DNA from: an uncultured Gammaproteobacteria bacterium
GTDB taxonomy: Bacteria > Pseudomonadota > Gammaproteobacteria > CAZDOC01
NCBI GenBank assembly: GCA_964506945.1
Contig: CAZDOC010000009.1
Location: 3,048 to 67,047 of the forward strand
Direction: 5' to 3'
Length of the DNA: 64,000 nucleotides
Part shown: one piece after another, positions 1 to 62,696 of the stretch
Position numbering within the stretch: the first letter of the stretch is position 1
Layout of the letters: every line of letters starts with the position of its first letter
Notes under the pieces: model-generated
Told to the model about the DNA's origin: nothing
Databases searched by the model: none
What the model saw: the letters and a program-made list of their open reading frames with translations, nothing else
Program-made: the position numbers and the translations under genes

Positions 1-489
1 CGCCGCCTGCGCCAGGCGCGGCCGGGGATCAGCCTGTCCTCGGACTTCATCGTCGGCTTCCCCGGCGAGAGCCAGGCCGATTTCGACGCCACCATGGACC
101 TGATCGCCGAGCTGGCTTTCGACCATTCCTTCAGTTTCATCTACAGCGCCCGACCGGGGACCCCGGCCGCGAACCTGCCGGACGATCTGCCGCTGGCGGA
201 GAAGAAGCAGCGCCTGGCCATCCTGCAGGCGCGCATCAAGCAGCAGGCCGCGGCCATCAGCGAGGCCATGGTCGGGGGCGTCGAGCGGATCCTGGTGGAA
301 CGGCGCTCGCGCAAGGACCCGCGGCAGATGTCCGGACGCACCGAGAACAACCGCGTGGTGAACTTCGACGGGGACGCCGGACTCATCGGCCAGTTCGTCG
401 ATGTGCGCATCACCGAGGCGCTGCCGAATTCCCTGCGTGGCGAACTCGTCGACTGTCCCGAGATGGAATTGCTGCGCGCCAGCCGATAG
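1..489 (+). CDS. miaB: tRNA-2-methylthio-N6-dimethylallyladenosine synthase MiaB, C-terminal part (5' end lies outside the window)
   Basis: The frame is open from base 1 and translates to ...[26 protein letters not shown]...TRAM-like C-terminus. This matches the MiaB C-terminal consensus, and the conserved neighbour ybeZ/phoH follows. Confidence 0.8.
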
Positions 490-595
490 CGGCTATACTT
501 TGTGCTAACGACCCCAAGCCCGACAGCGATGACCGAGACATCCGTGCACAATCCCGTAGCGCCCCACGCCGAGACACAGCAGCGTCACCCCCACC

Positions 596-1603
596 TTGAA
601 TAAAAGCGCACATGCCGACCAGGCCTACGCCTGCGATCTGGTCCTGGAACCCGCCGATAACGAACGCCTTGCCAATCTCTGCGGCCAGTTCGACGAACAC
701 CTGCGCCAGCTGGAACGGCGCCTGGGGGTGGAGATCAACAATCGTGGCAACCAGTTCCGCCTGATCGGACAGGAAGCCGCGGTACTGGTCACGGAGAGGC
801 TCATCCAGCAGCTCTACGAGGCGGCCGATGCCGAAGCCCTGTCTCCCGCCCGCATACACCTGTGGTTGCAGGAGTCCGGACTGGATGCGGCCCTGGAAGA
901 CGAGCCCCAGGAAGATGTCAGCATCCATACCCGGCGCGGGATCATCCGCGGCCGGGGCGCCAATCAGCAGCGCTATCTGCATAACATCCTGACCCATGAC
1001 ATCAATTTCGGCATCGGTCCGGCCGGTACCGGCAAGACCTATCTGGCCGTGGCCTGCGCGGTCGAGGCCCTGGAGCGGGATGCGGTCCGTCGCATCTGCC
1101 TGGTACGCCCGGCGGTGGAGGCCGGCGAGCGTCTGGGTTTCCTGCCCGGTGACATGAGCCAGAAGATCGATCCCTATCTGCGGCCCCTGTACGACGCCCT
1201 CTACGAGATGCTGGGCTTCGAGAAGGTCGCCCGCCATATCGAGCGCAACGTGATCGAGGTGGCGCCGCTGGCCTTCATGCGCGGGCGCACCCTGAACGAG
1301 TCCTTCATCATCCTCGACGAGGCCCAGAACACCACTACCGAGCAGATGAAGATGTTCCTGACCCGGATCGGCTTCGGCTCCACGGCGGTGATCACCGGCG
1401 ATATCACCCAGACCGATCTGCCGCGTGACAAACGCTCCGGGCTGCGCCACGTGATCGATGTGCTGCGTGATGCCGACGGTATCAGCTTCACCTTCTTCCA
1501 GTCGCGCGACGTGGTCCGGCATCCGCTGGTGGGACGGATCCTGGATGCCTACGAACGCCACGAGCGGCTGGGATTGAGGACGCCCGGCGTCAGGCACGAA
1601 TGA
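596..1603 (+). CDS. ybeZ: PhoH-like ATPase (YbeZ)
   Basis: Walker A GPAGTGKTYLAVA and the PhoH family layout. Sits in the conserved miaB-ybeZ-ybeY-corC-lnt block. The start is uncertain (a TTG at 596, or downstream). Confidence 0.8.
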   Translation: MNKSAHADQAYACDLVLEPADNERLANLCGQFDEHLRQLERRLGVEINNRGNQFRLIGQEAAVLVTERLIQQLYEAADAEALSPARIHLWLQESGLDAALEDEPQEDVSIHTRRGIIRGRGANQQRYLHNILTHDINFGIGPAGTGKTYLAVACAVEALERDAVRRICLVRPAVEAGERLGFLPGDMSQKIDPYLRPLYDALYEMLGFEKVARHIERNVIEVAPLAFMRGRTLNESFIILDEAQNTTTEQMKMFLTRIGFGSTAVITGDITQTDLPRDKRSGLRHVIDVLRDADGISFTFFQSRDVVRHPLVGRILDAYERHERLGLRTPGVRHE

Positions 1604-2061
1604 AGCTGGATCTGGACCTGCAGGTCGCCACCGGGGACGCCGACATACCCGGGCCGGGCCTGATGCGGGACTGGCTGCGGGCGGCCCTGGCGGGGGAACG
1701 CGAACAGGCCGGGATCAGCGTGCGCGTGGTGGACCTGGCGGAGGGCACGGCCCTGAACGAGCGCTGGCGTGAGCGGCGGGGTCCGACCAACGTCCTGTCC
1801 TTCACGGCCGAGGGCCTGGAGCAGCAACTGCCGGGATTTCTGGGTGATATCGTCATCTGTGCCCCGGTAGTGCGCCGGGAGGCGGCCGAGCAGCGCAAGC
1901 CCCTGCTGGCGCACTGGGCCCACCTGATCGTGCATGGCGGCCTGCACCTGCTCGGATATGACCATGTCGAGCCACGACAGGCGCAAATCATGGAAAGCAA
2001 GGAGATCCGGATCCTCGCCGGGCTGGGTTTTCCCGATCCCTATGGGGACACACTCCCATGA
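1600..2061 (+). CDS. ybeY: rRNA maturation endoribonuclease YbeY
   Basis: HxxxHxxxxxH metal motif (HLIVHGGLHLLGYDH), about 150 aa. ATGA overlap with ybeZ. Confidence 0.85.
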   Translation: MKLDLDLQVATGDADIPGPGLMRDWLRAALAGEREQAGISVRVVDLAEGTALNERWRERRGPTNVLSFTAEGLEQQLPGFLGDIVICAPVVRREAAEQRKPLLAHWAHLIVHGGLHLLGYDHVEPRQAQIMESKEIRILAGLGFPDPYGDTLP

Positions 2062-2909
2062 CGGCGCGTTGGTGCGGCGGTTTCGGTAACTGGCTGACCT
2101 GCCTGCGCAAGGGCATCGCCGGTCGCCTGCGGGATCGCCAGCAACTGACCCAGATCCTGCGCCAGGCGGAGCAGGACAACATCATCGATCCCGATACCCT
2201 GGGCATGATCGAGGGGGCCATGCAGATGTCGGAGATGCGCGTGCGCGACATCATGTTCCCGGCCGCCGAGATGGTCGCGGTCGGGGAGGACCAGAGGCCG
2301 GAGGAATTCCTGCCCATCGTGATCGAGTCCGGTCACTCACGCTTTCCGGTGGTGGACGAGGACCGGCGCGTGCAGGGCGTGCTGCTGGCCAAGGACCTGC
2401 TGGAATACCTCAGTCCCGCCAGCGGCGGCAAACAGGGGATCCGCCTGCGCGAGATCATGCGCAGGCCCTATTACGTACCCGAGAGCAAGCGCCTGACCGC
2501 CCTGCTGAGGGAACTGCGCGCCAGCCGCAACCACCTGGCCATCGTCGTCGATGAATACGGCGGCACCGCCGGGATCGTGACCATAGAGGATGTTATCGAG
2601 CAGATCGTCGGCGAGATCGACGATGAGCACGATATCGACGAGGAGGGTTTCATCCGCGAGCACCGCGGACGGCGATACATCGTCAAGGCGCGCACGCCGA
2701 TCGAGGACTTCAACGAATACTTCGGCACTACCCTGGAGGATGATGAATGCGATACCTTCGGCGGCCTGGTGCTGAAGGCCTTCGGGCACCTGCCGCGGCG
2801 GGGCGAGGCGGTGGACTTCGCCGGTTTCAATATCAAGGTGCTGCGCGCCGACAAGCGCCGCATCCACCTGTTGCGGCTGACGCCGCTGGCCGCGCCCCCC
2901 CGCGACTGA
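2058..2909 (+). CDS. corC: Mg2+/Co2+ efflux-associated protein CorC (CBS pair + CorC_HlyC domain)
   Basis: CBS-domain region followed by a transporter-associated C-terminal domain. Conserved position after ybeY. ATGA overlap. Confidence 0.8.
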   Translation: MTARWCGGFGNWLTCLRKGIAGRLRDRQQLTQILRQAEQDNIIDPDTLGMIEGAMQMSEMRVRDIMFPAAEMVAVGEDQRPEEFLPIVIESGHSRFPVVDEDRRVQGVLLAKDLLEYLSPASGGKQGIRLREIMRRPYYVPESKRLTALLRELRASRNHLAIVVDEYGGTAGIVTIEDVIEQIVGEIDDEHDIDEEGFIREHRGRRYIVKARTPIEDFNEYFGTTLEDDECDTFGGLVLKAFGHLPRRGEAVDFAGFNIKVLRADKRRIHLLRLTPLAAPPRD

Positions 2910-2923
2910 GCCAGGCCGCGCCG

Positions 2924-4483
2924 GTGAGGGACAGGACAAGCCTGCAAGGCAAACCGGGGGATCTGCTGGCGCTGGTGGCGGGGGCCTCGCTGCCCCTGGC
3001 CTTCGCCCCCTTTGGCTGGTATCCGCTGGCCCTGGTCTCGCCCCTGATCCTGTTTCTGTGCTGGCACGACGCCGGTCCCGGCCGGGCCGCCTGGCGCGGC
3101 TGGTTGTTCGGTCTTGGCCTGTTCGGCCTGGGGGTCTCCTGGATCGAGATCAGCGTGCATCAGTTCGGGATCCCGGTACGCATCTTCTCGGTCGGCGTGA
3201 CCCTGGCGCTGGTGATGTTCCTGGCCTTGTATCCCTCCCTGGCCGGCTGGCTGGCGGCGCGCCTGCGCCCGGCCGGCGGCGGGGCTGGTGCCACACATGC
3301 GCTGCTGTTGCTGCCGGCGCTGTGGGTATTGCAGGAGTGGCTGCGGGGCTGGTTGCTGACCGGTTTCCCCTGGCTGGACCTGGGATACAGCCAGATCGAC
3401 AGTCCCCTGGGGGGCTACGCCCCGCTGCTCGGGGTCTACGGGGTGAGCTGGTTGACGGTACTGGGCGCCGCGCTGCTGTATCACCTGCTGGTGGGCGGAC
3501 AGCGGCGCCTTGGCGTCATCCTGCTGCTGTTGTCGCTATGGCTGGGCGGGTGGGCCCTGGGCCAGCGGCAGTGGAGCCGGATCGATGACAAGGACCTGCA
3601 CGTGGCCCTGATCCAGGGCGCGGTGCCGCAGGCGCGGAAGTGGCTGCCCAGCGAATTGCGGCCGACCCAGGCGCTCTACTGGCGGCTGACCCGGGAGCAC
3701 CCCGAGGCGGAGTTGATCCTGTGGCCGGAGACCGCGATCCCGGCCTTCATGGATCGGCTCGGGGATTATCTGACCGGCATCCGCGAGATCCTCGGACGGC
3801 AAGGCGGCACCCTGGTGCTCGGTCTGCCGGTGCGCACGGACCGCGGCCATTATTACAATGCCATCGTCGCCCTGGATGACCCGGCCCAGGTTTACTACAA
3901 GCGCCACCTGGTGCCCTTTGGCGAGTACCTGCCGCTGCCCGGGCTGTTACGCGGACCCCTGGAGGCGCTGGATATCCCCATGTCCGATTTCTCCGCCGGC
4001 AGCGCCCGGCAACCCCTGTTGCATGCCGACGGCGTGACCCTGGGGGTCTCCATCTGCTACGAGGATGCCTTTGGCGGCGAGGTGAGCCAGGCCCTGCCGG
4101 AGGCGGAGCTGCTGCTCAATATCAGCAACGACGCCTGGTTCGGGGATTCCCTGGCGCCGCACCAGCACCTGCAGATCGCCCGCATGCGGGCGCTGGAGAA
4201 CGGCCGTTATCTGCTGCGCTCGACCAACACCGGGATCTCGGCGGTGATCGATCCGCGCGGCCGCGTCACCGCCCGCGCGCCCCAGTTCCAGCCGGTCGCG
4301 CTGGCCGCGGTGGTACACCGGGCCAGCGGGGTCACGCCCTACGCCCGTTACCGCAATGTACCGGTGATCACCCTGATGTTCGTGCTGCTCGGGCTGGGGA
4401 TCCTGGGCGGCCGTGGCGGTCGCGCGCGGGGACGCCCGGCCCCGGGGATGAGGGGTGCACCGGCTACTCGCGGACGCGTCTGA
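2924..4483 (+). CDS. lnt: apolipoprotein N-acyltransferase Lnt
   Basis: Multi-TM N-terminus plus a C-N hydrolase domain (LILWPETAIP...). In-frame GTG at 2924 lies just after the corC stop. The long ORF from 2747 would overlap corC, so I trimmed it. Confidence 0.8.
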   Translation: MRDRTSLQGKPGDLLALVAGASLPLAFAPFGWYPLALVSPLILFLCWHDAGPGRAAWRGWLFGLGLFGLGVSWIEISVHQFGIPVRIFSVGVTLALVMFLALYPSLAGWLAARLRPAGGGAGATHALLLLPALWVLQEWLRGWLLTGFPWLDLGYSQIDSPLGGYAPLLGVYGVSWLTVLGAALLYHLLVGGQRRLGVILLLLSLWLGGWALGQRQWSRIDDKDLHVALIQGAVPQARKWLPSELRPTQALYWRLTREHPEAELILWPETAIPAFMDRLGDYLTGIREILGRQGGTLVLGLPVRTDRGHYYNAIVALDDPAQVYYKRHLVPFGEYLPLPGLLRGPLEALDIPMSDFSAGSARQPLLHADGVTLGVSICYEDAFGGEVSQALPEAELLLNISNDAWFGDSLAPHQHLQIARMRALENGRYLLRSTNTGISAVIDPRGRVTARAPQFQPVALAAVVHRASGVTPYARYRNVPVITLMFVLLGLGILGGRGGRARGRPAPGMRGAPATRGRV

Positions 4484-4985
4484 ACACGGTCTGGTGGCAT
4501 TTCGGGCAGGGCGGGATATGCCCGGTCTTGTGAAAGTGCAGTTCCTCGCCGCAGTGCTCGCAGATCAGCGTGCCGGGGCCGACGATCTCGCCGGTGTGCC
4601 AGCCCACGGCATTGGCCTGTTCGGCGAATTGTTCCAGGGTCTGCTGGGTGTGATCGACCATCATCGCGAACATGTCGCGCAGGCGGTCCTCGACCAGTTC
4701 CATGTCGAAGCGCAGCCATTCGGACAACTGTTGCTGGTTCTCCTGCCAGTTCTTGGCGGCATCCTCCAGATCGCGCTTGAGGTAGTCGCTGACCTTTTGC
4801 GCCTCCTCCATGGTCAGTTCACCGAGTTCCACGGTCTTGTCGCGGGCAGCGTCCAGCAGTTCCTGAAGTGACGGGATGTGGCCCTCGCGGGCGTGCTCCA
4901 GCGCCTTCTTGGCCTGTTCCATCATCTGGTCGTAGGCCCGGGCCATGCGTTCCTGCAGGTCCGGTTCGGTTTTCTTCTCGTTCAT
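4464..4985 (-). CDS. hypothetical coiled-coil protein with C-terminal zinc ribbon (CEHCGEE...CPKCHQ)
   Basis: Intact 173-aa ORF. Acidic helical N-terminus and a CxxC-x17-CxxC ribbon. The family is not recognised. Confidence 0.5.
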   Translation of the reverse strand: MNEKKTEPDLQERMARAYDQMMEQAKKALEHAREGHIPSLQELLDAARDKTVELGELTMEEAQKVSDYLKRDLEDAAKNWQENQQQLSEWLRFDMELVEDRLRDMFAMMVDHTQQTLEQFAEQANAVGWHTGEIVGPGTLICEHCGEELHFHKTGHIPPCPKCHQTVFRRVRE

Positions 4986-5052
4986 ATCGGCCTCCCGTGG
5001 GTGTCAGGGACATCATTGTAAACACAGTGTCACGTGCATGGCATGATCCAGA

Positions 5053-7518
5053 TCAGGTTTTGTGCCCGTCCGCGCCGGGCTGCGCGTGGCGCATCCGCCG
5101 GGCTACCCGCAGATGCCGGTGCAGTTCCGCATCCGCGACGGCCAGTTTCAGGACCTGGCGGCGACTCAGGCGCAGCAAGGTGGTGGACATGGCGGCCGTG
5201 ACCGTGGCCGTGCGTACCGCGTCACCCAGCAGGGCGGTCTCGCCGAAGAAATCGCCCTGACCGAGTTCCGCCAGCGCCTGGCCGTGGCCGGCGCGCTCCC
5301 GGCTGACCCGGACCGTGCCGCGGATGATGATATAGAGGGCGTCTCCCCGCTCCCCTTCACCGATGATGATGTCGCCCTCGAGAAAGGTGACCTGGGTGCT
5401 CAAGCGGGCCAGTTTTTCCAGGGCCGCCGGTGGCAGTCCGGCAAACAGCGGCACGGTGCGCAACAGCTGCCGCGCGGTCAGGCGGTCCAGTTCTCCGGCC
5501 GCATCGCGTCCCGGGGTCAGGGCCTGTCGCAGATCCGCGCGCAGCCGGTTGCAGGCCTTGGCGCCGATCTCGCCATGATGCAGCAGGCGCTGGATGGACT
5601 GGTCCGCGCAGCGCAGGGCCACTTGCTGGAACAGTTCGTGTTCAAAGCGGGCGTAGAATCCCGGGAATTCCTCGCGCAGTTCGCGCAGACGGCGCTGGCG
5701 GTGCCGGCGGCGCTGGTCATATTCGCGGATGACGGTATCGTGGTCCGCGGGGTTCTGCTGTCGTTGCCGTTCGAGCTGCCGGATCACGGTCTGGCTCATC
5801 AGGACGCTGGCAAGATCATGCTGCAGGCGGTTGCCCAGCCGCCGGCGCTGGTATCCGGCCAGCAGCCCCGCGGCCCAGTCCAGCTCACGCAGGCGTTTCA
5901 GCAGCAGCTTTTCGAGGCGATGAAAGGGGTTCGGGCCGGCCCGGGGTCCAGCCTGCGCCGGGTCGCCGCCGGCGCTGCTCCAGCGGTCCCGATCGCGTTT
6001 CAGGGTATTGCGCAGGTCGAGATAGGCATAGCTATGCAGCAGACCGATCTCGTGCAGTTCATCGAGACTGGCGGATTCGATACGCAGGGCCTGCAGATAG
6101 ACCTGGCGCAGGGTCTCAGGACGGTCCTCGACATCCTTGCACCCGGCCAGGTGTTGTTCCAGGTCCCGACCGATGCGGGTGCGTGTGTCGTCCGACAGGA
6201 GTCCGCTGTCGGCGAAGCGTGCGAGGACCTCGCGGCTCCGCTCGCGCATGTGTTCCAGGCCCTGGTGATACTCGTGGCGCTCGTCATCGCTGAGACGGTC
6301 TATTCCCAGCCAGTGGATCAGCGGGCGGATGGTGGGGGCGTTGATCAGCAGGCTCAGCATCACCACGCCCAGGGTCAGGTTGATCAGGAACTGGCGTCCT
6401 TCCAGCTCCTGGGGGATGGACAGCACGATGGCGATGGCCAGACCGCCCTTGAGCCCGCCCCACCACATGATGTGTTGCTCCCCGCCGCTGACCCGGGGCA
6501 GACGGAACAGGCGCGTGGTCATCGGCACCAGGGTATAGACCGCGGCCGCCCGCGCGCCGATCACCAGAACGGCGGCCAGCAGGATCACATCGGCATGGTC
6601 CAGCAGCGCGCCGGTATCCACCGACAGACCTACCAGCAGGAACAGCAGGGAGTTGCACGCCAGGGCGATGAAATCCCAGGTCTCGTGGATCACCTGGGTG
6701 GCGATCTGGGGAATGCGGGCGGAGCCGTACCCCCCCAGGCAGATCCCCGCGGCCACCACCGCCATGACCCCCGAGACGTGCAGCAGGTGTTCGGCGATGA
6801 TGAAGCTGGCATAGGCGTTCACCAGGGACAGCACGATCAGGGCGCTGTTGCCCGTGCCCCGCAGGCGGGACATCAGCTCGGTGATCAGCAGGCCGATGAA
6901 CACCCCGACCAGGCTGCCGCCGATGAACACGCGCAGGAATTCCAGCGTCGCCAGACCGGCATCCGACCAGGCCGCGCCACCGGCCAGGGCCAGGCCCAGG
7001 AGGATATTGAACAGCACGATGGCGGTGGCGTCGTTGAACAGGGATTCTCCCTCGACCAGCACCGTCAGGCGCAGGGGCGCGCCCAGTTCCTTGAACAGGG
7101 CCACCACCGCGACCGGGTCGGTGGCCGAGATCAGGGCCCCGAACAGCAGCGCCGTCAGCGGTTCGATCCCCAGCAGCGACCACAGCCCCAGCCCGACCAG
7201 CAGGGCGGACACCAGCATCGCCGGCACCGCCAGGGTCAGCACCGGGATCAGGTCCTTCATCAACTGCCGGGCGTCGAGGTTGAGCGCCGATTCGAACACC
7301 AGCGCCGGCAGGAACAGGAACAGCACCAGCTCCGGGGTCAGGCGGAAGTGGCGCAGGGCCTGGAGGGCCTCGATGCTGCCGGACAGCGCCGACAGGGCCA
7401 TGCCCAGGAGCACCAGGACCACGGTAAAGGGCAGCGGCAGGTTGCGGCAGGCCCCGGCCGCGAGCATGGCCACGCCCAGCAGGCCCATGGTGATCAGGAT
7501 GATTTCAGCTAAAGGCAT
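5053..7518 (-). CDS. CPA1/NhaP-type Na+(K+)/H+ antiporter fused to a C-terminal cyclic-nucleotide-binding domain
   Basis: The N-terminal 400 aa are a multi-TM domain with the NhaP ATDPVAV motif. A long helical R/E-rich linker follows. The C-terminus carries a CNBD with FGETALL and an RTATVTA phosphate-binding cassette. Confidence 0.75.
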   Translation of the reverse strand: MPLAEIILITMGLLGVAMLAAGACRNLPLPFTVVLVLLGMALSALSGSIEALQALRHFRLTPELVLFLFLPALVFESALNLDARQLMKDLIPVLTLAVPAMLVSALLVGLGLWSLLGIEPLTALLFGALISATDPVAVVALFKELGAPLRLTVLVEGESLFNDATAIVLFNILLGLALAGGAAWSDAGLATLEFLRVFIGGSLVGVFIGLLITELMSRLRGTGNSALIVLSLVNAYASFIIAEHLLHVSGVMAVVAAGICLGGYGSARIPQIATQVIHETWDFIALACNSLLFLLVGLSVDTGALLDHADVILLAAVLVIGARAAAVYTLVPMTTRLFRLPRVSGGEQHIMWWGGLKGGLAIAIVLSIPQELEGRQFLINLTLGVVMLSLLINAPTIRPLIHWLGIDRLSDDERHEYHQGLEHMRERSREVLARFADSGLLSDDTRTRIGRDLEQHLAGCKDVEDRPETLRQVYLQALRIESASLDELHEIGLLHSYAYLDLRNTLKRDRDRWSSAGGDPAQAGPRAGPNPFHRLEKLLLKRLRELDWAAGLLAGYQRRRLGNRLQHDLASVLMSQTVIRQLERQRQQNPADHDTVIREYDQRRRHRQRRLRELREEFPGFYARFEHELFQQVALRCADQSIQRLLHHGEIGAKACNRLRADLRQALTPGRDAAGELDRLTARQLLRTVPLFAGLPPAALEKLARLSTQVTFLEGDIIIGEGERGDALYIIIRGTVRVSRERAGHGQALAELGQGDFFGETALLGDAVRTATVTAAMSTTLLRLSRRQVLKLAVADAELHRHLRVARRMRHAQPGADGHKT

Positions 7519-7558
7519 GGTTTCCCGCGGGAGCGCATGCCCGTTTCGGCGGGCCCCC

Positions 7559-7589
7559 CCTATGCTTGTGGTTTTACCCTAAGCATAGG
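7559..7589. promoter_or_regulatory. perfect 9-bp inverted repeat CCTATGCTT-N13-AAGCATAGG between the SDR operon end and the NhaP-CNBD gene start
   Basis: Seen directly in sequence. No U-tract follows on either strand. Confidence 0.4.
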
Positions 7590-7627
7590 TCAAACCCGCC
7601 CCGATGGCAGTCTGCCGGTATTCGTAC

Positions 7628-8425
7628 TCAGCCCTTTTCGTTGGCGAATCCCCGCATCTGTCTGCCCTGGGCGGCGAGTCCGCGATCGATCATCCTGGGG
7701 AGGATGCCGTTGAGGCGCGCGAACAGCCTTTCCGGGAAACCGAGATGACGTTCCGCCCGGTTGTGGCGGATGGTGGTGAGGATCTGCTCCGCCACCCAGG
7801 CGGGTTCATCCACCTTCATGCCGGTGGCCGCGGCCATGCGTTGCACATTACCGTTGTTGAGTGGCGTCCTGACGCTGCGTGGACCGATGTAATTGACCTG
7901 CAACCCGGTACCGCCAAGTTCGCGGCGCAGGGCCTCGGCGAAGCCGCGGATGGCGAACTTGCTGGATGAATAGGCGCTGAAGTAGGGCATGCCCAGGGCG
8001 CCGAGTATGGAGCCGGTGAAGACGATGGCGCCATGATCGCGGGCGAGCATGTCCGGCAGGAACATCCGGGTCAGCAGCATCGGCGCCTCGACATTGATGC
8101 GGATGGTGCGCTGGATGGCCTCGGGACGCATGCTCTCGAAGGTGGTGAAATCCATGACCCCGGCATTGTTGATCAGGATATCCACGTGGCCGCGCCAGTG
8201 CTGGTTGAGGGTGGTCTCCAGCTGGGCGCGACCGGGCGCGGTGGTGATATCCCCGGGGACGATGACATGCCCGCCTCCCAGACTTTCGTCCAGACGCCTC
8301 AAGGGCGCCTCATGCAGGTCCAGCAGGGCCAGGCGGGCGCCATGCGCGGCCAGCCGGGTGGCCAGTTCACGGCCGATGCCGCCGGCGGCGCCGGTCAGCA
8401 GAACGCGGGTATGGTTCAGTTCCAC
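7628..8425 (-). CDS. short-chain dehydrogenase/reductase (SDR), last gene of the sigma-54 operon
   Basis: TGAAGGIGRE Rossmann motif with a YxxxK catalytic region. 10-bp overlap with the upstream TPR gene. Confidence 0.8.
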   Translation of the reverse strand: MELNHTRVLLTGAAGGIGRELATRLAAHGARLALLDLHEAPLRRLDESLGGGHVIVPGDITTAPGRAQLETTLNQHWRGHVDILINNAGVMDFTTFESMRPEAIQRTIRINVEAPMLLTRMFLPDMLARDHGAIVFTGSILGALGMPYFSAYSSSKFAIRGFAEALRRELGGTGLQVNYIGPRSVRTPLNNGNVQRMAAATGMKVDEPAWVAEQILTTIRHNRAERHLGFPERLFARLNGILPRMIDRGLAAQGRQMRGFANEKG

Positions 8426-9105
8426 AGGCCACCCCCGTGTGCAGGTGCGCCGGTGCTGGCCAGTTTGTCCTGCAGCCGGGTGAGCAGGGCCTGGATGTCC
8501 TGGCGCCGGCCCCGATCGGCCAGGGGCCGGTGCTTGCGCGGGGCCGCCCTGCGCGCGCGTTCGGCATATTTCTTCGCCTGGATGTAATCCCCCTGTTCAT
8601 ACAGATAGTCGGCATAGAAGTAGTTCGGGTCGATGCCATCCGGATTGATGCTCAGGGCCTTCTTCAGGTATGCGCCGGCCTTGTCGTCGTCGCCAAAGCC
8701 GATGGGCCAGCCCGGGACCTTGTAATACAGGCTGCCGAGTGAGGTGTAGATGGAGCCCTTGAGCGCCCGGGGATCGATGCCCTCGGCCCGTTGCAGCAGT
8801 TTGCGCGCGGCCTTGGCCTTGCCGAGGGCGCCCAGGCCGCCGACCACACCGGCCTCGGTGCTGAGGATGATGGCCTTCCAGACCAGGGGCTCGGCGCGTT
8901 GCGGATAGTCGCCGGCGAGCCTGTCGGCCTGTTTGACCAGCTTGTCGAAGGCCTGCTCCTGTGACGCCTCCGGGGTCGCGTAGTTGGCTCGCGCCCAGCC
9001 CTGTTGCAGTTGCAGCAGGGCCTCCGGCAGGGGCGTGGCGGCGCTGGCCAGCGCGGGCACGATATTCAGCAGAAAACAGGACAGGCTTACGGTCAGGGTC
9101 TTCAT
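8416..9105 (-). CDS. secreted TPR-repeat protein
   Basis: Signal peptide (cleavage ...ALASA|ATP) followed by TPR-like helical repeats. 4-bp overlap with the upstream gene. Confidence 0.6.
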   Translation of the reverse strand: MKTLTVSLSCFLLNIVPALASAATPLPEALLQLQQGWARANYATPEASQEQAFDKLVKQADRLAGDYPQRAEPLVWKAIILSTEAGVVGGLGALGKAKAARKLLQRAEGIDPRALKGSIYTSLGSLYYKVPGWPIGFGDDDKAGAYLKKALSINPDGIDPNYFYADYLYEQGDYIQAKKYAERARRAAPRKHRPLADRGRRQDIQALLTRLQDKLASTGAPAHGGGLWN

Positions 9106-22479: not shown

Positions 22480-22800
22480 ACCGTCATTGTCCTGACCGCC
22501 GTCGCCCAGCCCCGGTCACTCCCGGCGGTGTCGATGGCAGGCTGTTCGGGATCCCCCCGCAGCTCCACCCCCTCCCCGGACGCCGCGGAAACAAAAGATC
22601 AAGTTTTCTCCCCCCGCGTCGCTACAGGTAGACCCGCACCCGAATGAGGAGGGATGGCGGGACCACCGCCCCGGGTCCCGTGTCGACGCCATGCGAAAAC
22701 ACCCCCTGTCCGCCGGCGAGGAAGCTCGGCGGGCCAACGACGCCTGGAGAGCGGCGGGGATCATGCCCGCCCCGATCTCCCCGCCTGCCAGGACAGGCTC

Positions 22801-25800
22801 ATGACGGTCGGCGAGCTGGAGGACGGCCTGGTTTTCCAGCATGCCCCTCATGGCATCGCGCTGTTGTCCGCCGACATGATCCTGTTGCAGGTGAACCCGG
22901 CCCTCTGCGAGATGCTGGGTTACCCCGGCGAGTCCCTGCTGGGACGGGACCTGCGTGAACTGGGCGCTGCCGATATCGCCAGGAAGGCCACCCTTTATCT
23001 ACGTCTCGCGCATGGGCGGGGGCTTGAGGAAGGGCGTTGTCAGACCCGGATCATGCACCGGGATGGCAGCCCCGTCGAGACCCGGATCAGTATCACCACC
23101 CTCAGGGACCGGGCCGGCGAGATCAGCCGGCATATCGCCCAGTTCGTGGATATCGGTGAGCAACAGCGCCAGCTCACCGAGATCCGGAAACTGGGCCGGC
23201 ACTATCGTCTGCTGCGGGCCATCAATCAACTCATCATCCATGCCGCCGATGAGGGGGAGCTGTACGCCGGCGTGTGCCGGCTGGCGGTGGAGACCGGGCA
23301 GATAGCCATGGCCTGGGTGGGTCGTGTGGACAGCGATGGCGCCTCGATCGTGCCGGTCACGGCATGTGGGGAGGGCCGTGACTATGTCGGCGAGATCCGG
23401 ATAAGCAGCCGCGCCGACCTGCCCGCGGGCCGGGGTCCCTGCGGTCAGGCCGTGCGTACGAGCAAGGTCGTGGTCTGCAACGATTTCCAGCACGATCCCG
23501 CCACCCGCCCATGGCAGCGCGAGAGAGAAAAATATGGCTGGGGCAGCAGTATTTCCCTGCCCTTGCTGCGGACGGGCGAGTGCATAGGGGTGCTGAACCT
23601 GTACACCCACGAGTCCGGGGCCTTCGACCCGGAGCTGGTGGCGCTGTACCGGCAGCTGGGCGAGGATATCTCCTACGCCCTGGATCGCATCGGCGGTGAA
23701 CGAGAGCGGGACGCCTATCGCCGGGAATTGCAGGAAACGCGGGATCGCCTCAGCCATATCATCGATACCTCGCCCGCGGTGATCTACCGCTGTCAGGCCT
23801 GGGACCGCTATCCCTTTACCTTCATCAGCCACCATGTCTCGCATCTGCTGGGCTACGAGGCCGAGGACTTCGTCCGCCGCCCCACGCTCTGGGTCGAGAG
23901 CATCCATCCCGAAGATGTCGATCGAATACTCGACAATCTGCCGCATTTCGACGGTAGCGATGCCCATGTCCAGGAATACCGCATCCGTCATCGCCAGGGC
24001 CATTATCTGTGGTTGCGTGACGAACTCACCCTGATCCGGGATGGGCGGGGGGCGCCGCTGGAGATCATCGGCTCCATGATGGAGATCAGCGATCGTAAAC
24101 GCGACGAGGAGAAGATACAGCGCCTGACCCGTTTCTATCACACCCTGAGCCAGGTCAACGAGACCATCGTCAGGGTCGACAACGAGGAGGACTTGTTGCC
24201 CCGGCTGTGCCAACTGGCGGTGGAGCTCAGTGATCTGGACGCCGTGTGGATAGGGCGGCCCGATGACTCACGGCGGGTGCGGGTGATCGCCTCCGCGGGG
24301 GAGGGTCGGGAGCTGCTCGAGCAGGTGTTCATCTCCGTGGATGAACAGCGGGTGGAGGGGCAGGGCGTGGTGGGCAAGGCCTGGCGGGAGGATCGCGTGG
24401 CCATGGAGAATCATTTCGACCGCCTCACCGACCTGCCCTGGTATGAGCAGATCATGCAGCTGGGCCTGCGTTCCGCGGCCGCCTTCCCGGTCCATCGCGG
24501 TGGTGAACGGCATGCGGTATTCGTCGCCTATTCACGCCATGAGGACGTCTTCGACGAAGAGGTCGGCGGTCTGCTGCAGGATATGGTCGCGGATATGTCC
24601 TACGCCCTGGACCGTATCGATCAGGATCGGCGACGGCGGGAATACGAGGAGCAGCTGCAGCTCTATGCGCGGGTATTCGAGCAGGGCAACGAGGCCATCA
24701 CCATTACCGACCCCGACAGGCGCATCATCTATGTCAACAAGGCCTTCACGGACATCACCGGCTACAGCCTCGATGATGTCAGGGGCCATGACCCCTCCAA
24801 GCTGGCCTCGGGCAGGCATTCACAGGACTTCTACCGGGACATGTGGGAACGGATCCATAACGAGGGTCACTGGGAAGGGGAGATCTGGAACCGGCGCAAG
24901 GACGGCGGGATCTACCCGGAAAGGCTGTCGATCGGCAGCGTCAGGGATGACACCGGCACGCTGACCAACTATGTCGGCATTTTCACCGATATCTCCGAGC
25001 AGAAGGCCGCGGAGGACAAGATCACCCGGCTGGCGCATTATGATCAGCTGACCGGCCTGCCCAACCGGATCCTGCTGGAGGATTTGATCCGGCGGGTCAT
25101 ATCCGGGGCCCGGCGCCGCGACCAGCCGGTCGCCGTGCTGTTCATGGATCTCGATCGTTTCAAGAACGTGAATGATTCACTGGGTCATGGGATTGGCGAC
25201 GGTTTACTGCAGGAGGTCGCCAGGCGACTGGTGCAGGTGGTGCGCAATGTCGATGTCGTGGCCCGCCTGGGTGGCGACGAGTTCGTGGTGGTGCTGACGG
25301 ATACCGATGATGAAGGGGCGGCCCATGTGGCGGAAAAGATCGGCGCCACCATCGCCGAGCCCATGCTCATAGAGGGGCATCAGCTGAACATCGCCACATC
25401 CATCGGCATCAGCCTGTACCCGGACAACGGCCTGGATTTCCAGACCTTGCTGCGCAATGCCGATACCGCGATGTACCGGGCCAAGCGCCAGGCCGTGACC
25501 CCGTTCTGCTTTTTTACCGAGGAGATGCAGCGCAGGGTCATGCGCCAGCTGGAACTGGAGACCCAGCTGCGCGGGGTGATCGAACGCGGCGAACTGGTGG
25601 TGTACTATCAGCCGCAGGTGGACCTGCGCACGGGGGCCATCATCGGCGCCGAGGCCCTGTTGCGCTGGCAGCATCCGGACTGGGGGCTGGTGTCCCCCGG
25701 CGAGTTCATCCCGGTGGCGGAAGAAAGCGGTCTGATCCTGCCCATAGGCCGGTGGGTGCTGGAGAACGCCATCGTCCAGAATCGCCGCTGGCAGGATGAG

Positions 25801-26340
25801 GGCCTGCCAGCCATCGGCATCTCGGTCAACCTGTCCCTGCGGCAGTTTCAGCAGGCCGATCTGGTGGCGCAGGTCAGGCAGCTGTTGCAGGCCCACGGGC
25901 TGGAACCGCGATGGCTGGAACTGGAACTCACCGAGAGCATCGCCATGCAGGACGCCGATGAGGCGGTCAGGATAACCAATGCCCTGAGCGAGCTGGGTAT
26001 CGGGCTTTCCATCGATGATTTCGGCACCGGTTATTCCTCGCTCAGCTATCTGAAACGGTTCTCGCTGTCGCGTCTGAAGATAGACCTGTCCTTTATCCGT
26101 GACATCACCACCGATCCGGAGGACGAGGCCATCGTCGATACCATCATCAGCATGGCCGGCAGCCTGGGCCTGAAGACCATCGCCGAGGGCGTGGAGACCC
26201 GTGAACAGCGGGATCTTCTGCGCGCCAAGGGCTGCGACGAGATGCAAGGCTATCTTTTCAGCCGGCCGCTAGCGGCGGAGGCATTCGCCGGACTCCTGCG
26301 CCGGTCCGGCTCCCGGGCGGACCGGGGTCTCAGCGACTGA
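22801..26340 (+). CDS. multidomain c-di-GMP signalling protein: PAS-GAF-PAS-GAF-PAS-GGDEF-EAL
   Basis: Intact RLGGDEF motif, and an EAL motif with the ELTES/EALLRW signature. Three PAS and two GAF modules. 1179 aa from ATG 22801, which is preceded by GGACAGG. Confidence 0.9.
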   Translation: MTVGELEDGLVFQHAPHGIALLSADMILLQVNPALCEMLGYPGESLLGRDLRELGAADIARKATLYLRLAHGRGLEEGRCQTRIMHRDGSPVETRISITTLRDRAGEISRHIAQFVDIGEQQRQLTEIRKLGRHYRLLRAINQLIIHAADEGELYAGVCRLAVETGQIAMAWVGRVDSDGASIVPVTACGEGRDYVGEIRISSRADLPAGRGPCGQAVRTSKVVVCNDFQHDPATRPWQREREKYGWGSSISLPLLRTGECIGVLNLYTHESGAFDPELVALYRQLGEDISYALDRIGGERERDAYRRELQETRDRLSHIIDTSPAVIYRCQAWDRYPFTFISHHVSHLLGYEAEDFVRRPTLWVESIHPEDVDRILDNLPHFDGSDAHVQEYRIRHRQGHYLWLRDELTLIRDGRGAPLEIIGSMMEISDRKRDEEKIQRLTRFYHTLSQVNETIVRVDNEEDLLPRLCQLAVELSDLDAVWIGRPDDSRRVRVIASAGEGRELLEQVFISVDEQRVEGQGVVGKAWREDRVAMENHFDRLTDLPWYEQIMQLGLRSAAAFPVHRGGERHAVFVAYSRHEDVFDEEVGGLLQDMVADMSYALDRIDQDRRRREYEEQLQLYARVFEQGNEAITITDPDRRIIYVNKAFTDITGYSLDDVRGHDPSKLASGRHSQDFYRDMWERIHNEGHWEGEIWNRRKDGGIYPERLSIGSVRDDTGTLTNYVGIFTDISEQKAAEDKITRLAHYDQLTGLPNRILLEDLIRRVISGARRRDQPVAVLFMDLDRFKNVNDSLGHGIGDGLLQEVARRLVQVVRNVDVVARLGGDEFVVVLTDTDDEGAAHVAEKIGATIAEPMLIEGHQLNIATSIGISLYPDNGLDFQTLLRNADTAMYRAKRQAVTPFCFFTEEMQRRVMRQLELETQLRGVIERGELVVYYQPQVDLRTGAIIGAEALLRWQHPDWGLVSPGEFIPVAEESGLILPIGRWVLENAIVQNRRWQDEGLPAIGISVNLSLRQFQQADLVAQVRQLLQAHGLEPRWLELELTESIAMQDADEAVRITNALSELGIGLSIDDFGTGYSSLSYLKRFSLSRLKIDLSFIRDITTDPEDEAIVDTIISMAGSLGLKTIAEGVETREQRDLLRAKGCDEMQGYLFSRPLAAEAFAGLLRRSGSRADRGLSD

Positions 26341-54831: not shown

Positions 54832-55731
54832 TCACAGGCTTCGCGGTGGGGCCTGCGGGCAGTTCCGGCCAGTTCCGGACTCGATCTGCAGGGTGGGGTG
54901 TACGATACCGAAACGCTCATGCAGGACCGCGGCAATCTCTCGCAGCAGGGCATCGTGATCCCCGGGGTCGGGGACCACCAGATGCGCGGTCAGGGCCACT
55001 TCCGTGGTGCTCATCGCCCAGATGTGCAGATCATGCAGGGCCTGGACCCCGGGGAGCCCCCGCAGGTAGTCCGCGACCGCCTGGGGGTCGATATCCGGCG
55101 GCACCGAGTCCAGGGACAGGCTGATCGAATCGCGCAGCAGGCCCCAGGTGCCTGCCAGGACCACCATGGCGATGATCAGACTGATCAGGGGATCCAGCCA
55201 GTCCCATCCCGTCAGCAGGATGCCGACGCCCACCATCACGACCCCTAAGGAGACCCCCGCGTCGGCGGCCATGTGCAGGAAGGCGCCGCGGATATTGAGA
55301 TCGTCCTTCTGGCCCCGCAGGAACAGCAGCGCGGTGAAGGTGTTGATGACGGTGCCGATGGCGGCGACGACGATGATGGTCGTTCCGGCAACCGGGCTGG
55401 GCTCGCCGAGGCGGGCCAGCGCCGCCCAGGTGATCGAGCCGATCGCCAGCAGCAACAGGCAGGCACTGATCATCGAGGCCAGTATGGTGACCCGCCTGAG
55501 CCCATAGGTGCGCCTCTGGGTCGGCGTCCTGGCCGCGAGGGCGGCGGCGCCCCCGGCCAGGATCAGGCTGACGACATCGCTGAAGTTGTGTCCGGCATCG
55601 GCGATCAGCGCCAGCGAATCCGCGATTACGCCGTAGAACAGCTCGATGATAACGAAACCGAGGTTCAGCCCGATACCGAGTATGAAGGCCTTCCGGTGAC
55701 CGCGGCTTTGCCGTCCGTGCTCATGGGACAT
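54832..55731 (-). CDS. cation diffusion facilitator family metal efflux transporter
   Basis: Six TM segments, an HxxxD-type motif (ADAGHNFSD), and a C-terminal cytoplasmic domain. Confidence 0.8.
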   Translation of the reverse strand: MSHEHGRQSRGHRKAFILGIGLNLGFVIIELFYGVIADSLALIADAGHNFSDVVSLILAGGAAALAARTPTQRRTYGLRRVTILASMISACLLLLAIGSITWAALARLGEPSPVAGTTIIVVAAIGTVINTFTALLFLRGQKDDLNIRGAFLHMAADAGVSLGVVMVGVGILLTGWDWLDPLISLIIAMVVLAGTWGLLRDSISLSLDSVPPDIDPQAVADYLRGLPGVQALHDLHIWAMSTTEVALTAHLVVPDPGDHDALLREIAAVLHERFGIVHPTLQIESGTGRNCPQAPPRSL

Positions 55732-55802
55732 GGCAATCCAGCCCCGGCCGAAACCGATGGATGTGGCGTGGCAGTGGCAGCGGTGATTTCCGCGATGCCG
55801 GT

Positions 55803-60564: not shown

Positions 60565-61662
60565 TCAAGCCCGGGCCCGGGCGTTCTTCTCCAGTCCCCC
60601 CGGGAACCAGTGGCGGGTGCGGTTACAGAAGTACACCACCGAGAGCATCACCGGTACCTCGACCAGGACCCCGACCACGGTCGCCAGCGCGGCGCCGGAC
60701 TCCGGGCCGTAGAGGGTGATGGCAGTGGCCACCGCCAGCTCGAAGAAGTTGCTGGCGCCGATCAGGGCGCCCGGTGCGGCGACGTCGTGCGGCACCCGGA
60801 AGACCTTCATCAGGCCATAGGCCAGGGAGGAATTGAAATAGACCTGGATCAGGATCGGGATCGCGATCAGCAGGATATTCAGCGGCTCGCCGGTGATGTT
60901 GTCGGCCTGGAAGGCGAAGATGAAGATCAGGGTCACGAGCAGGGCGATGATCGTGAGCGGGTGGAAGAATCTCAGATAACGGCCCTCGAACCAGGCGATG
61001 CCGAAGCTGTGGATCAGCACCACGCGGCTGAGGCTGCCCAGCGCCAGCGGGATGACGATGAAGGTGATCACGCTGTAGAGCAGGACATCGAAGGGCACGG
61101 TCAGATTGCTGGCGCCGCTGACCAGCAGGCCGACGATGGGGGCGAACAGCAGCAGCATGATCAGGTCGTTCAGCGAGACCTGCACCAGGGTGTAGGCCGG
61201 GTCGCCGTCGGTGAGGTAGGACCAGACGAAGACCATCGCGGTGCATGGCGCCGCGGCGAGGATGATGCAGCCGGCGATGTACTGATCGGCGAGGTCCGCG
61301 CCGATGAGGGGCAGGAACAGGTGCTTGAAGAAGACCCAGGCGATCAAGGCCATGGAGAAGGGCTTGACCAGCCAGTTCACGAACAGGGTGATCAGGATCC
61401 CCCTGGGCCGGCGGCGGACGTCGATGAGGCTGGAGAAGTCGATCTTCAGCATCATCGGGTAGATCATCAGCCAGATCAGGATCGCGATGGGGATGTTGAT
61501 CTGGCTGTGCTGGCCGAATTCCATCGCCCGCAGGCTGGCGGTCGTCCCGGGCAGGAGCTTGCCCAGTATCACCCCGGCGAGCATGCACAGGCCGACCCAC
61601 AGGGTCAGGTAGCGTTCAAAAAAGCCGAGCCGTCTGTTGTCGCTGGAGGGTTTGTCGCCCAT
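60565..61662 (-). CDS. acr3: arsenite efflux permease ACR3
   Basis: Ten-TM ACR3-family protein with the conserved R-x-C-T-A-M-V region (AAPCTAMVF). Confidence 0.85.
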   Translation of the reverse strand: MGDKPSSDNRRLGFFERYLTLWVGLCMLAGVILGKLLPGTTASLRAMEFGQHSQINIPIAILIWLMIYPMMLKIDFSSLIDVRRRPRGILITLFVNWLVKPFSMALIAWVFFKHLFLPLIGADLADQYIAGCIILAAAPCTAMVFVWSYLTDGDPAYTLVQVSLNDLIMLLLFAPIVGLLVSGASNLTVPFDVLLYSVITFIVIPLALGSLSRVVLIHSFGIAWFEGRYLRFFHPLTIIALLVTLIFIFAFQADNITGEPLNILLIAIPILIQVYFNSSLAYGLMKVFRVPHDVAAPGALIGASNFFELAVATAITLYGPESGAALATVVGVLVEVPVMLSVVYFCNRTRHWFPGGLEKNARARA

Positions 61663-61697
61663 GTCGATGGTCCTTGCCTGTTAGGTCATTGCCATGG

Positions 61698-62650: not shown

Positions 62651-62696
62651 GGTGTGTTTCCTCTATGGTGTCGGCAACGGAGTCAGGTCGTCGTAC

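Follow-up and report, generated by a model that had tools for sequence, protein, structure and literature searches.

Does a single bacterial polypeptide combine a cation/proton exchanger with a functional cyclic-nucleotide-binding domain (CNBD), and, if so, how does it relate to the plant and sperm exchangers of similar build? The question is raised by an open reading frame (ORF) on a contig of an uncultured gammaproteobacterium, of which a stretch of 64,000 nucleotides was analyzed (hereafter the window, to which all nucleotide positions refer). This ORF, here termed the antiporter gene, lies on the minus strand and runs without interruption from an ATG start codon at position 7518 to a TGA stop codon at 5053-5055, encoding 821 amino acids (aa). 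Its status as a complete coding sequence (5053-7518) is based on the ORF list, on the translation and on the G+C content of third codon positions (GC3), which at 0.86 resembles that of real genes in the surrounding 65% G+C window; in addition, a protein 100% identical to its product (P0001) is present in NCBI-derived data. An initial annotation, made from the sequence alone, had read the gene as one 821-aa ORF carrying an exchanger and a CNBD in the same frame, without giving its strand, and translation bears this out, with both domains detected far above chance. We propose, with a probability of roughly 0.7, that the product is a cyclic-nucleotide-controlled monovalent-cation/proton antiporter, composed of an exchanger domain, a counterpart of the alpha C-terminal domain (alpha-CTD) of plant SOS1 and a single canonical CNBD.

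The domain search that had been suggested as a check returned both expected Pfam families well over their cut-offs. Na_H_Exchanger (PF00999) matches residues 17-402 along almost its entire model (positions 4-374 of 375), with an E-value of 1.2e-60 and 205.8 bits where the gathering score is 26.2, and cNMP_binding (PF00027) matches residues 710-793 (E 2.3e-20, 72.8 bits against a cut-off of 27.5). Conservation was assessed in two sets, namely 69 aligned homologues that represent the close subfamily and 70 full-length genes, found among 83 loci, which are 30-80% identical and come from many phyla. On the combined basis of Pfam, AlphaFold2 (AF2) and Foldseek, residues 1-404 (6307-7518, minus strand, as are all features of the gene) form a CPA1 exchanger domain of 13 transmembrane (TM) helices with the NhaA fold and with broken helices at ATDP and GGLKGG; in the AF2 model, helices extend over residues 3-404, with breaks at 131-134 and 355-358, and 13 of them are membrane helices. 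The ATDPVAV motif to which the initial annotation had pointed is confirmed by translation as part of ISATDPVAV, its ATDP (aa 132-135, 7114-7125) providing the unwound TM5 with the ion-binding Thr-Asp pair. Translation also places the ND motif, Asn162-Asp163 (7030-7035), within VEGESLFND, and an invariant TM11 arginine, Arg323 (6550-6552), aligns with the R399-type Arg of SLC9C1. Residues E76, T133, D134, S159, N162, D163 and R323 are invariant in the 69 aligned homologues, and the TD pair, the ND pair and R323 remain invariant in all 70 diverse members. In MjNhaP1 and sea urchin SLC9C1 (SpSLC9C1), Na+ is coordinated by Thr, Asp, Ser and Asp and the TM11 Arg is essential, while the ND motif is diagnostic of electroneutral exchangers (PMC6052114). 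Since the antiporter carries the ND motif, electroneutral exchange is predicted.

The nearest solved relatives of the exchanger domain are SLC9C1 (184 bits), SOS1 (168 and 156 bits), NHE3 (128 bits) and NHE1 (109 bits). This ranking is kept by a family profile (SLC9C1, E 1e-79; SOS1, E 4e-74), the corresponding single-sequence match to SLC9C1 having an E-value of 3.5e-53. In Foldseek comparisons the TM domains of SOS1, NHE1 and PaNhaP match with root-mean-square deviations (rmsd) of 2.9-4.8 Å, and the match to TM-only SOS1 reaches an rmsd of 2.9 Å and a target-normalized TM-score (TMt) of 0.84. A departure from the CPA1 pattern is found in the broken TM12, where translation and family alignment place Lys357 within GGLKGG (aa 354-359, 6442-6459), at the position of the second conserved CPA1 Arg (GGLRG; R347 in MjNhaP1 and R431 in SpSLC9C1), which is Arg in NHE as well, so that one residue expected of CPA1 members is replaced. 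Lys357 is invariant in the close subfamily; among 80 loci, GGLKG is found in 26 and GGLRG in 53, the bearers of Lys being nearly all at least ~40% identical to the antiporter, besides two from Gemmatimonadota at 35%; Arg is retained farther out in the family. The substitution is conservative and CPA1 membership still holds. Hence, the protein is probably a CPA1/NhaP-type cation/proton antiporter of the NhaP/SOS1 clade, located in the inner membrane.

Which cation is exchanged for protons is less evident. The Na+/H+ equivalog model of NCBIfam, TIGR00831 (a_cpa1), scores 241.3 bits, under its cut-off of 279.6, and the K+/H+ antiporter models score 113 and 93 bits, both under theirs; the cation is therefore unassignable by equivalog. 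We infer that Na+ is likelier than K+. Transport of K+, as in Vibrio NhaP2 or E. coli YcgO/CvrA, is somewhat unlikely, although the K+/H+ models do match and the Na+/H+ equivalog does not reach its own cut-off either, the Lys357 peculiar to the subfamily could change the ion site, and K+-related families recur among 120 ORFs adjoining relatives of the gene (TrkA_C 6, TrkA_N 4, Ion_trans_2 3). Moreover, two reports describe K+/H+ exchangers among bacterial NhaP-type proteins (PMC6567090, PMC11808508). Against K+, every Na+-coordinating residue of archaeal NhaP that is retained in SLC9C1 is also present here, the closest characterized relatives, SLC9C1 and SOS1, carry Na+, and the neighbourhood signal is weak, at no more than 6 of 120 ORFs.

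The CNBD (aa 681-812, 5083-5478), as delimited by Pfam and AF2, consists of N-terminal helices, a beta-roll (708-785) and the B and C helices (786-812). The phosphate-binding cassette quoted in the initial annotation, FGETALLGDAVRTATVTA, is confirmed by translation at aa 758-775 (5194-5247), with Gly759, Glu760, Arg769 and Thr770 as its key residues, and the canonical pattern G-E-x-A-L-(x)n-R-[ST]-A is found in the translated FGETALLGDAVRTATV. Conservation of this site is pronounced: G759, E760, A762, L763, R769 and A771, together with R810 of the C-helix, are invariant in the 69 aligned homologues, and 67 of the 70 diverse members, down to 30% identity and in different phyla, still have the G/E/R triad. 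Rare exceptions, such as the cyanobacterial (Oscillatoria) locus L080 with G-A...C, indicate that decay of the cassette is possible and uncommon. The initial annotation had named a C-terminal domain unable to bind nucleotide as an outcome that would overturn it; instead, the cassette is intact and, judging from its sequence conservation, under purifying selection, which indicates selection for ligand binding. Arg810 (5089-5091), present in nearly all of the 70 diverse members, is a candidate lid residue over the bound base, by analogy with R1097 of SpSLC9C1, which likewise sits on the C-helix (PMC10620091). A sizeable subgroup of relatives, of ~937-945 aa, bears two CNBDs in tandem after the helical domain (P0007, P0020 and P0051, and loci L003, L005, L006 and L012), and in L005 and L006 a canonical cassette was detected in each of the two.

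Among solved structures, the CNBD is best matched by CNB-B of PKG I (70 bits), with further matches to the PKA R subunit, MloK1, SthK and CRP. cAMP is the common bacterial cyclic mononucleotide and is for this reason taken as the default; we infer it to be the most likely ligand, with cGMP less likely. That the protein responds instead to cGMP or to another cyclic nucleotide (cCMP, cUMP) is unlikely. The best-matching solved CNBDs are indeed those of PKG I and of apicomplexan PKG, the cassette reads R-T-A as in PKG, and some carriers of the gene, such as Rhodocista, come from lineages akin to bacteria that use cGMP. However, R-[ST]-A is also found in cAMP-selective and non-selective CNBDs, and the beta5 Arg of PKG I CNB-B (in FLRTL), which contacts guanine, aligns with an Ala here (ALAEL), leaving cGMP selectivity from a PKG-like cassette unsupported. 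The prevalence of cAMP in bacteria argues in the same direction. So does SpSLC9C1, which binds both nucleotides with a four-fold preference for cAMP (PMC10620091).

It is quite improbable that the CNBD is a structural, dimerization or autoinhibitory module deaf to cyclic nucleotides, with regulation exerted by pH, ions or partner proteins. SOS1, architecturally the nearest relative, offers a precedent for such an arrangement, its CNBD-like pocket being occluded by its own C-helix and its control being exerted by phosphorylation (PMC10372031), and a cyclase is neither found among the scanned ORFs of the window nor conserved near the gene. Nevertheless, the residues in contact with the cyclic phosphate (Gly759, Glu760, Arg769, Thr/Ser770 and Ala771) are invariant in the subfamily, retention of the G/E/R triad across phyla in all but three of the 70 members would be unexpected for a purely structural beta-roll, and the phosphorylated autoinhibitory tail of SOS1 is missing here.

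The region between the exchanger and the CNBD had been described as a 250-aa linker rich in Arg, Glu and Gln. Its Arg content is indeed high (15.8%, beside 15.1% Leu), and the segment RRRHRQRRLRELRE is confirmed by translation at aa 603-616; its true length, however, is about 276 aa (405-680, 5479-6306), and it is no low-complexity spacer but a conserved cytoplasmic domain of nine helices, defined by conservation, AF2, Foldseek and a sequence bridge through the homologue P0216. In the Pfam scan no family, Ion_trans included, matches between the exchanger and the CNBD, and no model covers residues 405-680. The mean frequency of the major residue is 0.58 in this domain, compared with 0.76 in the membrane domain and 0.69 in the CNBD, with an occupancy of 0.99-1.00, and its invariant positions include E481, E536, R544, E545, Q557, R560, R603 and K654. 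A confident model was obtained with AF2 for the domain alone, with nine helices and a mean predicted local distance difference test score (pLDDT) of 81. When this model was compared with the whole PDB by Foldseek, the top 28 matches were all structures of either SLC9C1 or SOS1, the best with E-values of 1.7e-4 to 1e-2, query-normalized TM-scores (TMq) of 0.49-0.56 and 266-349 aligned columns, those to SOS1 with E-values of 3e-4 to 5e-4 over 266-267 columns, whereas unrelated helical proteins begin at E > 1 and a TMq of ~0.2. The reading of the region as a low-complexity or coiled-coil spacer is thus ruled out by the invariant residues, the confident fold and the specific structural matches.

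Direct sequence comparison is less informative at this distance. A single sequence of the helical domain searched against the PDB with phmmer matched liprin alone, at chance level, and a 16-sequence profile matched only MogR (E 0.003, taken as chance between helical proteins) and gave no direct match to SOS1. Searched against 1.84 billion cluster representatives, the helical-domain profile retrieved just 169 proteins; in full-length matches, which measure ~800-850 aa, it occupies roughly residues 400-690, and all ten of the ten longer matches tested are exchanger and CNBD proteins. The domain has so far been seen solely in that context. One homologue, P0216, provides the intermediate: this protein of 1100 aa with two CNBDs matches the helical-domain profile at 436-714 (E 2.5e-9), and its residues 19-823 align without a break to residues 40-830 of Arabidopsis SOS1 (E 7.6e-50). 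The alpha-CTD of SOS1 comprises residues 458-722 (PMC10372031), and the alignment therefore spans it, bridging the helical domain to SOS1 in sequence. On account of the structural matches of the domain alone and of this intermediate sequence, we conclude that the helical domain corresponds in bacteria to the alpha-CTD of SOS1 and to the coupling helices, or 'allosteric ring domain', of SLC9C1, two modules already regarded as alike in the structural literature (PMC10620091, PMC10602139).

The likeness extends to the whole protein. The full-length AF2 model (pLDDT 77) aligns to SOS1 over 836-841 columns with a TMq of 0.64 and 23-24% identity, compared with a TMq of 0.45 for TM-only SOS1, and to SLC9C1 over ~940-970 columns. 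In SOS1 the cytoplasmic domain is autoinhibitory, and truncation of the tail fully activates the Arabidopsis protein (PMC10372031); in the constitutively active state of rice SOS1 1-976 (8j2m), the membrane domain alone is modelled, with 424 residues. SLC9C1, in turn, binds cAMP at 2.4 µM and is potentiated by it, and cAMP raises the heterogeneity of its cytoplasmic domains (PMC10620091, PMC6052114). Because all three modules of the antiporter are homologous to those of SOS1 and SLC9C1, the following mechanism can be proposed. The protein would act as an elevator-type transporter built on the 13-TM exchanger domain, presumably as a dimer. In the unliganded state, the alpha-CTD/CNBD assembly beneath the membrane would hold the transport domain back, as in autoinhibited SOS1 and resting SLC9C1. 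A 3',5'-cyclic nucleotide would then enter the cassette (Glu760, Arg769, Thr770), with the C-helix as a cap, and its binding would rearrange the C-helix and the alpha-CTD and thereby release the restraint on the transport domain. Exchange of Na+ (or K+) for H+ would in this manner be coupled to the cellular level of cyclic nucleotide. By analogy, activation by the ligand would be likelier than inhibition, at roughly three to two.

Several points weigh against a cyclic-nucleotide-controlled antiporter and should be considered together. As regards control, the homologous domain of SOS1 is not known to bind nucleotide, which means that a CNBD fold alone is no proof of ligand control; the direction of regulation has analogy as its sole basis; and the full-length AF2 model is a monomer with a predicted TM-score (pTM) of 0.62, giving moderate confidence in the domain arrangement. 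A Pfam scan of the 64-kb window (~60 filtered ORFs of at least ~115 aa) detected neither a cyclase, of whatever class, nor a CRP or a cyclic nucleotide phosphodiesterase, and no neighbour, cyclases included, is conserved across the ~70-80 loci of relatives. As regards transport, the Na+/H+ equivalog falls short of its cut-off, as given above, and Lys357 stands at the position of an Arg whose mutation impairs MjNhaP1, so that transport in this subfamily could differ from that of textbook NhaP. Finally, no binding or transport experiment on any member of the family was found in the searchable literature.

The genomic neighbourhood of the gene was surveyed in the window and in the relatives. Convergent to the antiporter gene lies a housekeeping cluster, miaB(TRAM)-phoH-ybeY-corC-lnt (94-4483, plus strand), and on the same side a DUF1451 gene is separated from the antiporter stop codon by a gap of 67 nt. 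Upstream and on the same strand as the antiporter gene (7628-12014, minus) stands a group encoding a short-chain dehydrogenase/reductase (SDR), a tetratricopeptide-repeat (TPR) protein, a haem-oxygenase-like 'iron-containing redox enzyme' (PF14518), an AMP-binding protein and a member of the thermostable-hemolysin family (PF12261), which may form a small lipid- or metabolite-modifying cluster. The gene arrangement is identical in an 80%-identical relative (L002), including the synteny of the SDR, TPR and PF14518 genes, while the gene still adjoins lnt in a relative at 50% identity, does so in 7-8 of the loci fetched, and no longer does in other relatives; this adjacency is positional rather than obviously functional. 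All-against-all clustering of the ORFs of the 83 loci yielded only the lnt cluster (7-8 close relatives) and antisense shadow ORFs, and in a Pfam census of the 120 ORFs adjoining ~70 loci no family occurs more than six times, with Guanylate_cyc outside the 25 most frequent. Recurrent families in that census include, besides those named above, VCA0040-like (6) and DUF1538 (4); the presence of TrkA_C, TrkA_N and Ion_trans_2 is a weak hint of a link to K+ transport. The only cyclase linkage seen is that of P0216, which on its 11.8-kb contig (JGI sample 3300042731) has a class III cyclase gene (FHA-GAF-Guanylate_cyc) directly beside it in convergent orientation, and this single case is anecdotal. 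Given that no cyclase was found among the scanned ORFs of the window and that no neighbour is conserved, the antiporter is a self-contained unit, and any signal it responds to would originate elsewhere in the genome. Of enzymes for nucleotide second messengers, the scanned ORFs of the window yielded a single one, a 1228-aa GAF-PAS-PAS-GGDEF-EAL protein (22654-26340, plus), an enzyme of cyclic di-GMP turnover.

A role in anti-phage defence, as a Pycsar-type effector in which infection triggers synthesis of a cyclic nucleotide and this switches on a membrane protein able to collapse ion gradients, is very improbable. Pycsar effectors do include CNBDs fused to membrane-spanning segments, and PADLOC reports matches to PycTIR (40.6 bits) and PycC (31.8 bits), but these are weak and confined to the CNBD (aa 680-813). 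Furthermore, the gene lacks the adjacent cyclase, none being found among the scanned ORFs of the window, it lies in a housekeeping neighbourhood whose synteny extends to relatives at 50-80% identity, the Pfam scan of the window ORFs shows neither mobile-element nor defence genes, and the ion site of the exchanger is invariant across phyla. The defence reading is therefore rejected.

The distribution of the family bears on whether the fusion is real. A search of 5.8 billion proteins gave 5115 matches at E <= 1e-10, from which details were drawn for the 120 listed homologues. Each of these spans the full length (789-944 aa), has both Pfam domains and shares 50-80% identity with the antiporter, and their automatic names are either 'cation:proton antiporter' or 'cyclic nucleotide-binding domain-containing protein'. 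In a scan of one genome per GTDB species, at least 598 stretches encode relatives, the best 80 of which span the whole protein. Their carriers belong to the Gamma-, Alpha- and Betaproteobacteria (among them Methylotuvimicrobium, Legionella londiniensis, Photobacterium, Rhodocista and Aurantiacibacter) and further to the Gemmatimonadota, Verrucomicrobiota, Nitrospinota, Spirochaetia, Blastocatellia, Desulfobacterales and Cyanobacteria. Complete genomes with the gene include those of Methylotuvimicrobium sp. KM1, Legionella londiniensis, Photobacterium obscurum and Rhodocista pekingensis. The family is thus widespread and very common in bacteria. That two separate genes were fused into one ORF by an error of assembly or sequencing can be dismissed as next to impossible, since nothing was found in its favour and the architecture is continuous in the 120 listed homologues, which stem from independent sources, and in 70 full-length genes among 83 loci; at least 598 stretches in species genomes encode relatives, and the intervening domain is itself conserved and confidently folded. 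For the same reason, the frameshift that the initial annotation had considered, separating the two parts into distinct genes, does not hold, the N-terminus MPL(A/S)E and the full length being shared by the 120 listed homologues and the 70 full-length genes found elsewhere.

Other features of the locus can be described briefly. An 816-codon ORF antisense to the antiporter gene (5062-7512, plus strand) has a GC3 of 0.74, compared with 0.86 for the sense gene, and homologous antisense ORFs recur as clusters in 61 and 29 of the fetched loci of relatives; they recur because the sense gene is conserved, and the antisense ORF is a high-G+C shadow and no gene. The leader between the upstream SDR gene and the antiporter start codon measures 109 nt (7519-7627) and contains an inverted repeat, CCTATGCTT-N13-AAGCATAGG (7559-7589, minus), noted from the sequence as a possible and uncertain regulatory hairpin or operator. 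Its 31 nt fall within a block of 32 columns that is identical in L002 while the flanks diverge, and the RNA fold of the whole leader has an energy of -46.9 kcal/mol (z -2.7). The hairpin matches no Rfam family and occurs once in the window, and none of the other 79 relatives has the repeat upstream of the gene; a terminator of the SDR gene devoid of a T-run is one possible reading, a lineage-specific operator or leader another. The sole sigma-70-like promoter match in the region 4300-8700 lies in the gap between the antiporter and DUF1451 genes (5015-5044, minus), the number of such matches in that region not exceeding that in shuffled sequence, and the DUF1451 gene may have its own promoter. 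Further away, genes for an ArsR-type helix-turn-helix protein, a glyoxalase-family protein, a low-molecular-weight phosphatase (ArsC-like) and an SBF/ACR3-type transporter (60565-63050, minus) are likely an arsenic-resistance cluster, and a cation diffusion facilitator (CDF) efflux protein is encoded beside a 784-aa MscS-family mechanosensitive channel (54832-58157, minus), which adds to the ion-homeostasis genes of the window.

The fusion as such is no discovery, being visible to any Pfam-based annotation of proteins that are already named automatically. The remark in the initial annotation that few bacterial fusions of this kind have been characterized is understated as regards function, for no study of a bacterial CPA1-CNBD protein was found in the full-text literature (subscription-only papers lying outside this scope), and it conveys little of how common the family is. 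A 2020 review in Front Plant Sci states that the combination of exchanger and CNBD is 'not present in bacteria' and had its origin in algae (PMC7573149), a statement contradicted by the listed homologues and by the at least 598 genome stretches. Elsewhere, the ancestry of SOS1 from prokaryotic NhaP was inferred on trimmed membrane domains (PMC3355601), surveys of exchanger and CNBD proteins were limited to eukaryotes (PMC6660944), a classification of CNBD families has no antiporter or exchanger class (PMC2246266), and a review of prokaryotic Na+/H+ exchangers is silent on cyclic nucleotides (PMC9408914). The presence in bacteria of the entire SOS1/SLC9C cytoplasmic module, in minimal form and with a conserved nucleotide site, appears to be undescribed.

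We therefore suggest, tentatively and at somewhat less than even odds, that the family is the prokaryotic prototype of the SOS1/SLC9C architecture (exchanger, alpha-CTD ring and CNBD) and a purely cyclic-nucleotide-gated secondary-active transporter. If this is true, plant and sperm exchangers would have inherited a complete three-module protein from bacteria, plants then losing the nucleotide site and gaining a phospho-regulated tail, and metazoans inserting a voltage sensor. The regulatory module of SOS1/SLC9C, and not the membrane domain alone, has bacterial homologues, and the view of an algal origin is thereby revised. The cytoplasmic control of elevator-type Na+/H+ exchangers is an active structural question, the structures of SLC9C1 and SOS1 having been solved only in 2023, and their coupling is obscured by extra modules, respectively the voltage sensor and the phospho-tail. 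The bacterial family would offer a minimal, easily expressed model for CNBD control of an elevator transporter, in which exchanger, alpha-CTD and CNBD alone, available in hundreds of variants from thermally and chemically diverse lineages, could reveal how the ligand releases the transport domain. A further prediction is that cAMP (or cGMP) signalling acts directly, without transcription, on pH and cation homeostasis in many environmental Proteobacteria, Gemmatimonadota, Verrucomicrobiota, Nitrospinota and others.

Compared with known systems, the architecture is SOS1-like in its layout and SLC9C1-like in its intact nucleotide site. With plant SOS1/NHX7 (Arabidopsis 7y3e and 8jd9, rice 8iwo), a plasma-membrane Na+/H+ antiporter of the NhaP/SOS1 clade, the bacterial protein shares the order of modules, that is, a 13-TM CPA1 exchanger, an alpha-helical domain of ~265-275 aa and a domain of CNBD fold. 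SOS1, however, continues into a beta-CTD and an autoinhibitory tail of ~150 aa that is phosphorylated by SOS2/CIPK24 (PMC10372031), whereas the antiporter ends nine residues past the C-helix of its CNBD, without a beta-CTD or a SOS1-type tail. The two differ as well in that the CNBD-like domain of SOS1 is not known to bind nucleotide (PMC10372031), while the bacterial cassette is canonical and conserved, and in the Lys357 that the bacterial subfamily carries in GGLKG.

The initial annotation had likened the protein to sperm SLC9C exchangers, which stands for the exchanger, the coupling helices and the nucleotide site but not for the layout, which resembles that of SOS1, with neither a voltage sensor nor a beta-CTD. 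Sea urchin SLC9C1 (8pcz, 8otq, 8xpq, 8u6z) is the best PDB sequence match of the exchanger domain, its coupling helices are equivalent to the bacterial helical domain, and its CNBD, with a Glu...Arg cassette and an Arg on the C-helix, is functional and binds cAMP at 2.4 µM and cGMP at 9.3 µM (PMC10620091). On the other hand, SLC9C1 is strictly voltage-gated through an S4-type voltage sensor placed between the coupling helices and the CNBD; in the antiporter, no hydrophobic segment is found past residue ~404 (and no hydrophobic peak past 392) and residues 405-680 form nine soluble helices, so that a voltage sensor is absent. The beta-CTD after the CNBD and the GGLRG sequence likewise belong to SLC9C1, which is restricted to metazoan sperm (PMC6660944).

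With prokaryotic NhaP proteins (PaNhaP 4cz8, MjNhaP1, Vibrio NhaP1-3 and Synechocystis NhaS1/SynNhaP1), the antiporter shares the exchanger of NhaA fold, the TD and ND motifs and the TM11 Arg, and it superposes on PaNhaP with an rmsd of 4.5-4.8 Å over ~435 columns, yet its sequence similarity to them is below that to SLC9C1 or SOS1. To our knowledge, none of these characterized NhaP proteins is reported to carry an alpha-CTD and CNBD module. In a similar vein, MloK1, SthK and proteins of the CRP, PKA and PKG type possess a CNBD that is homologous and carries the same cassette (E 1e-13 to 1e-28), and in MloK1 and SthK a cyclic nucleotide directly controls the flux of ions across a bacterial membrane. 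All of these, however, are channels or soluble proteins, whereas the antiporter would be a secondary-active transporter of the elevator type, in which coupling would be provided by a helical domain of the SOS1/SLC9C type instead of a C-linker.

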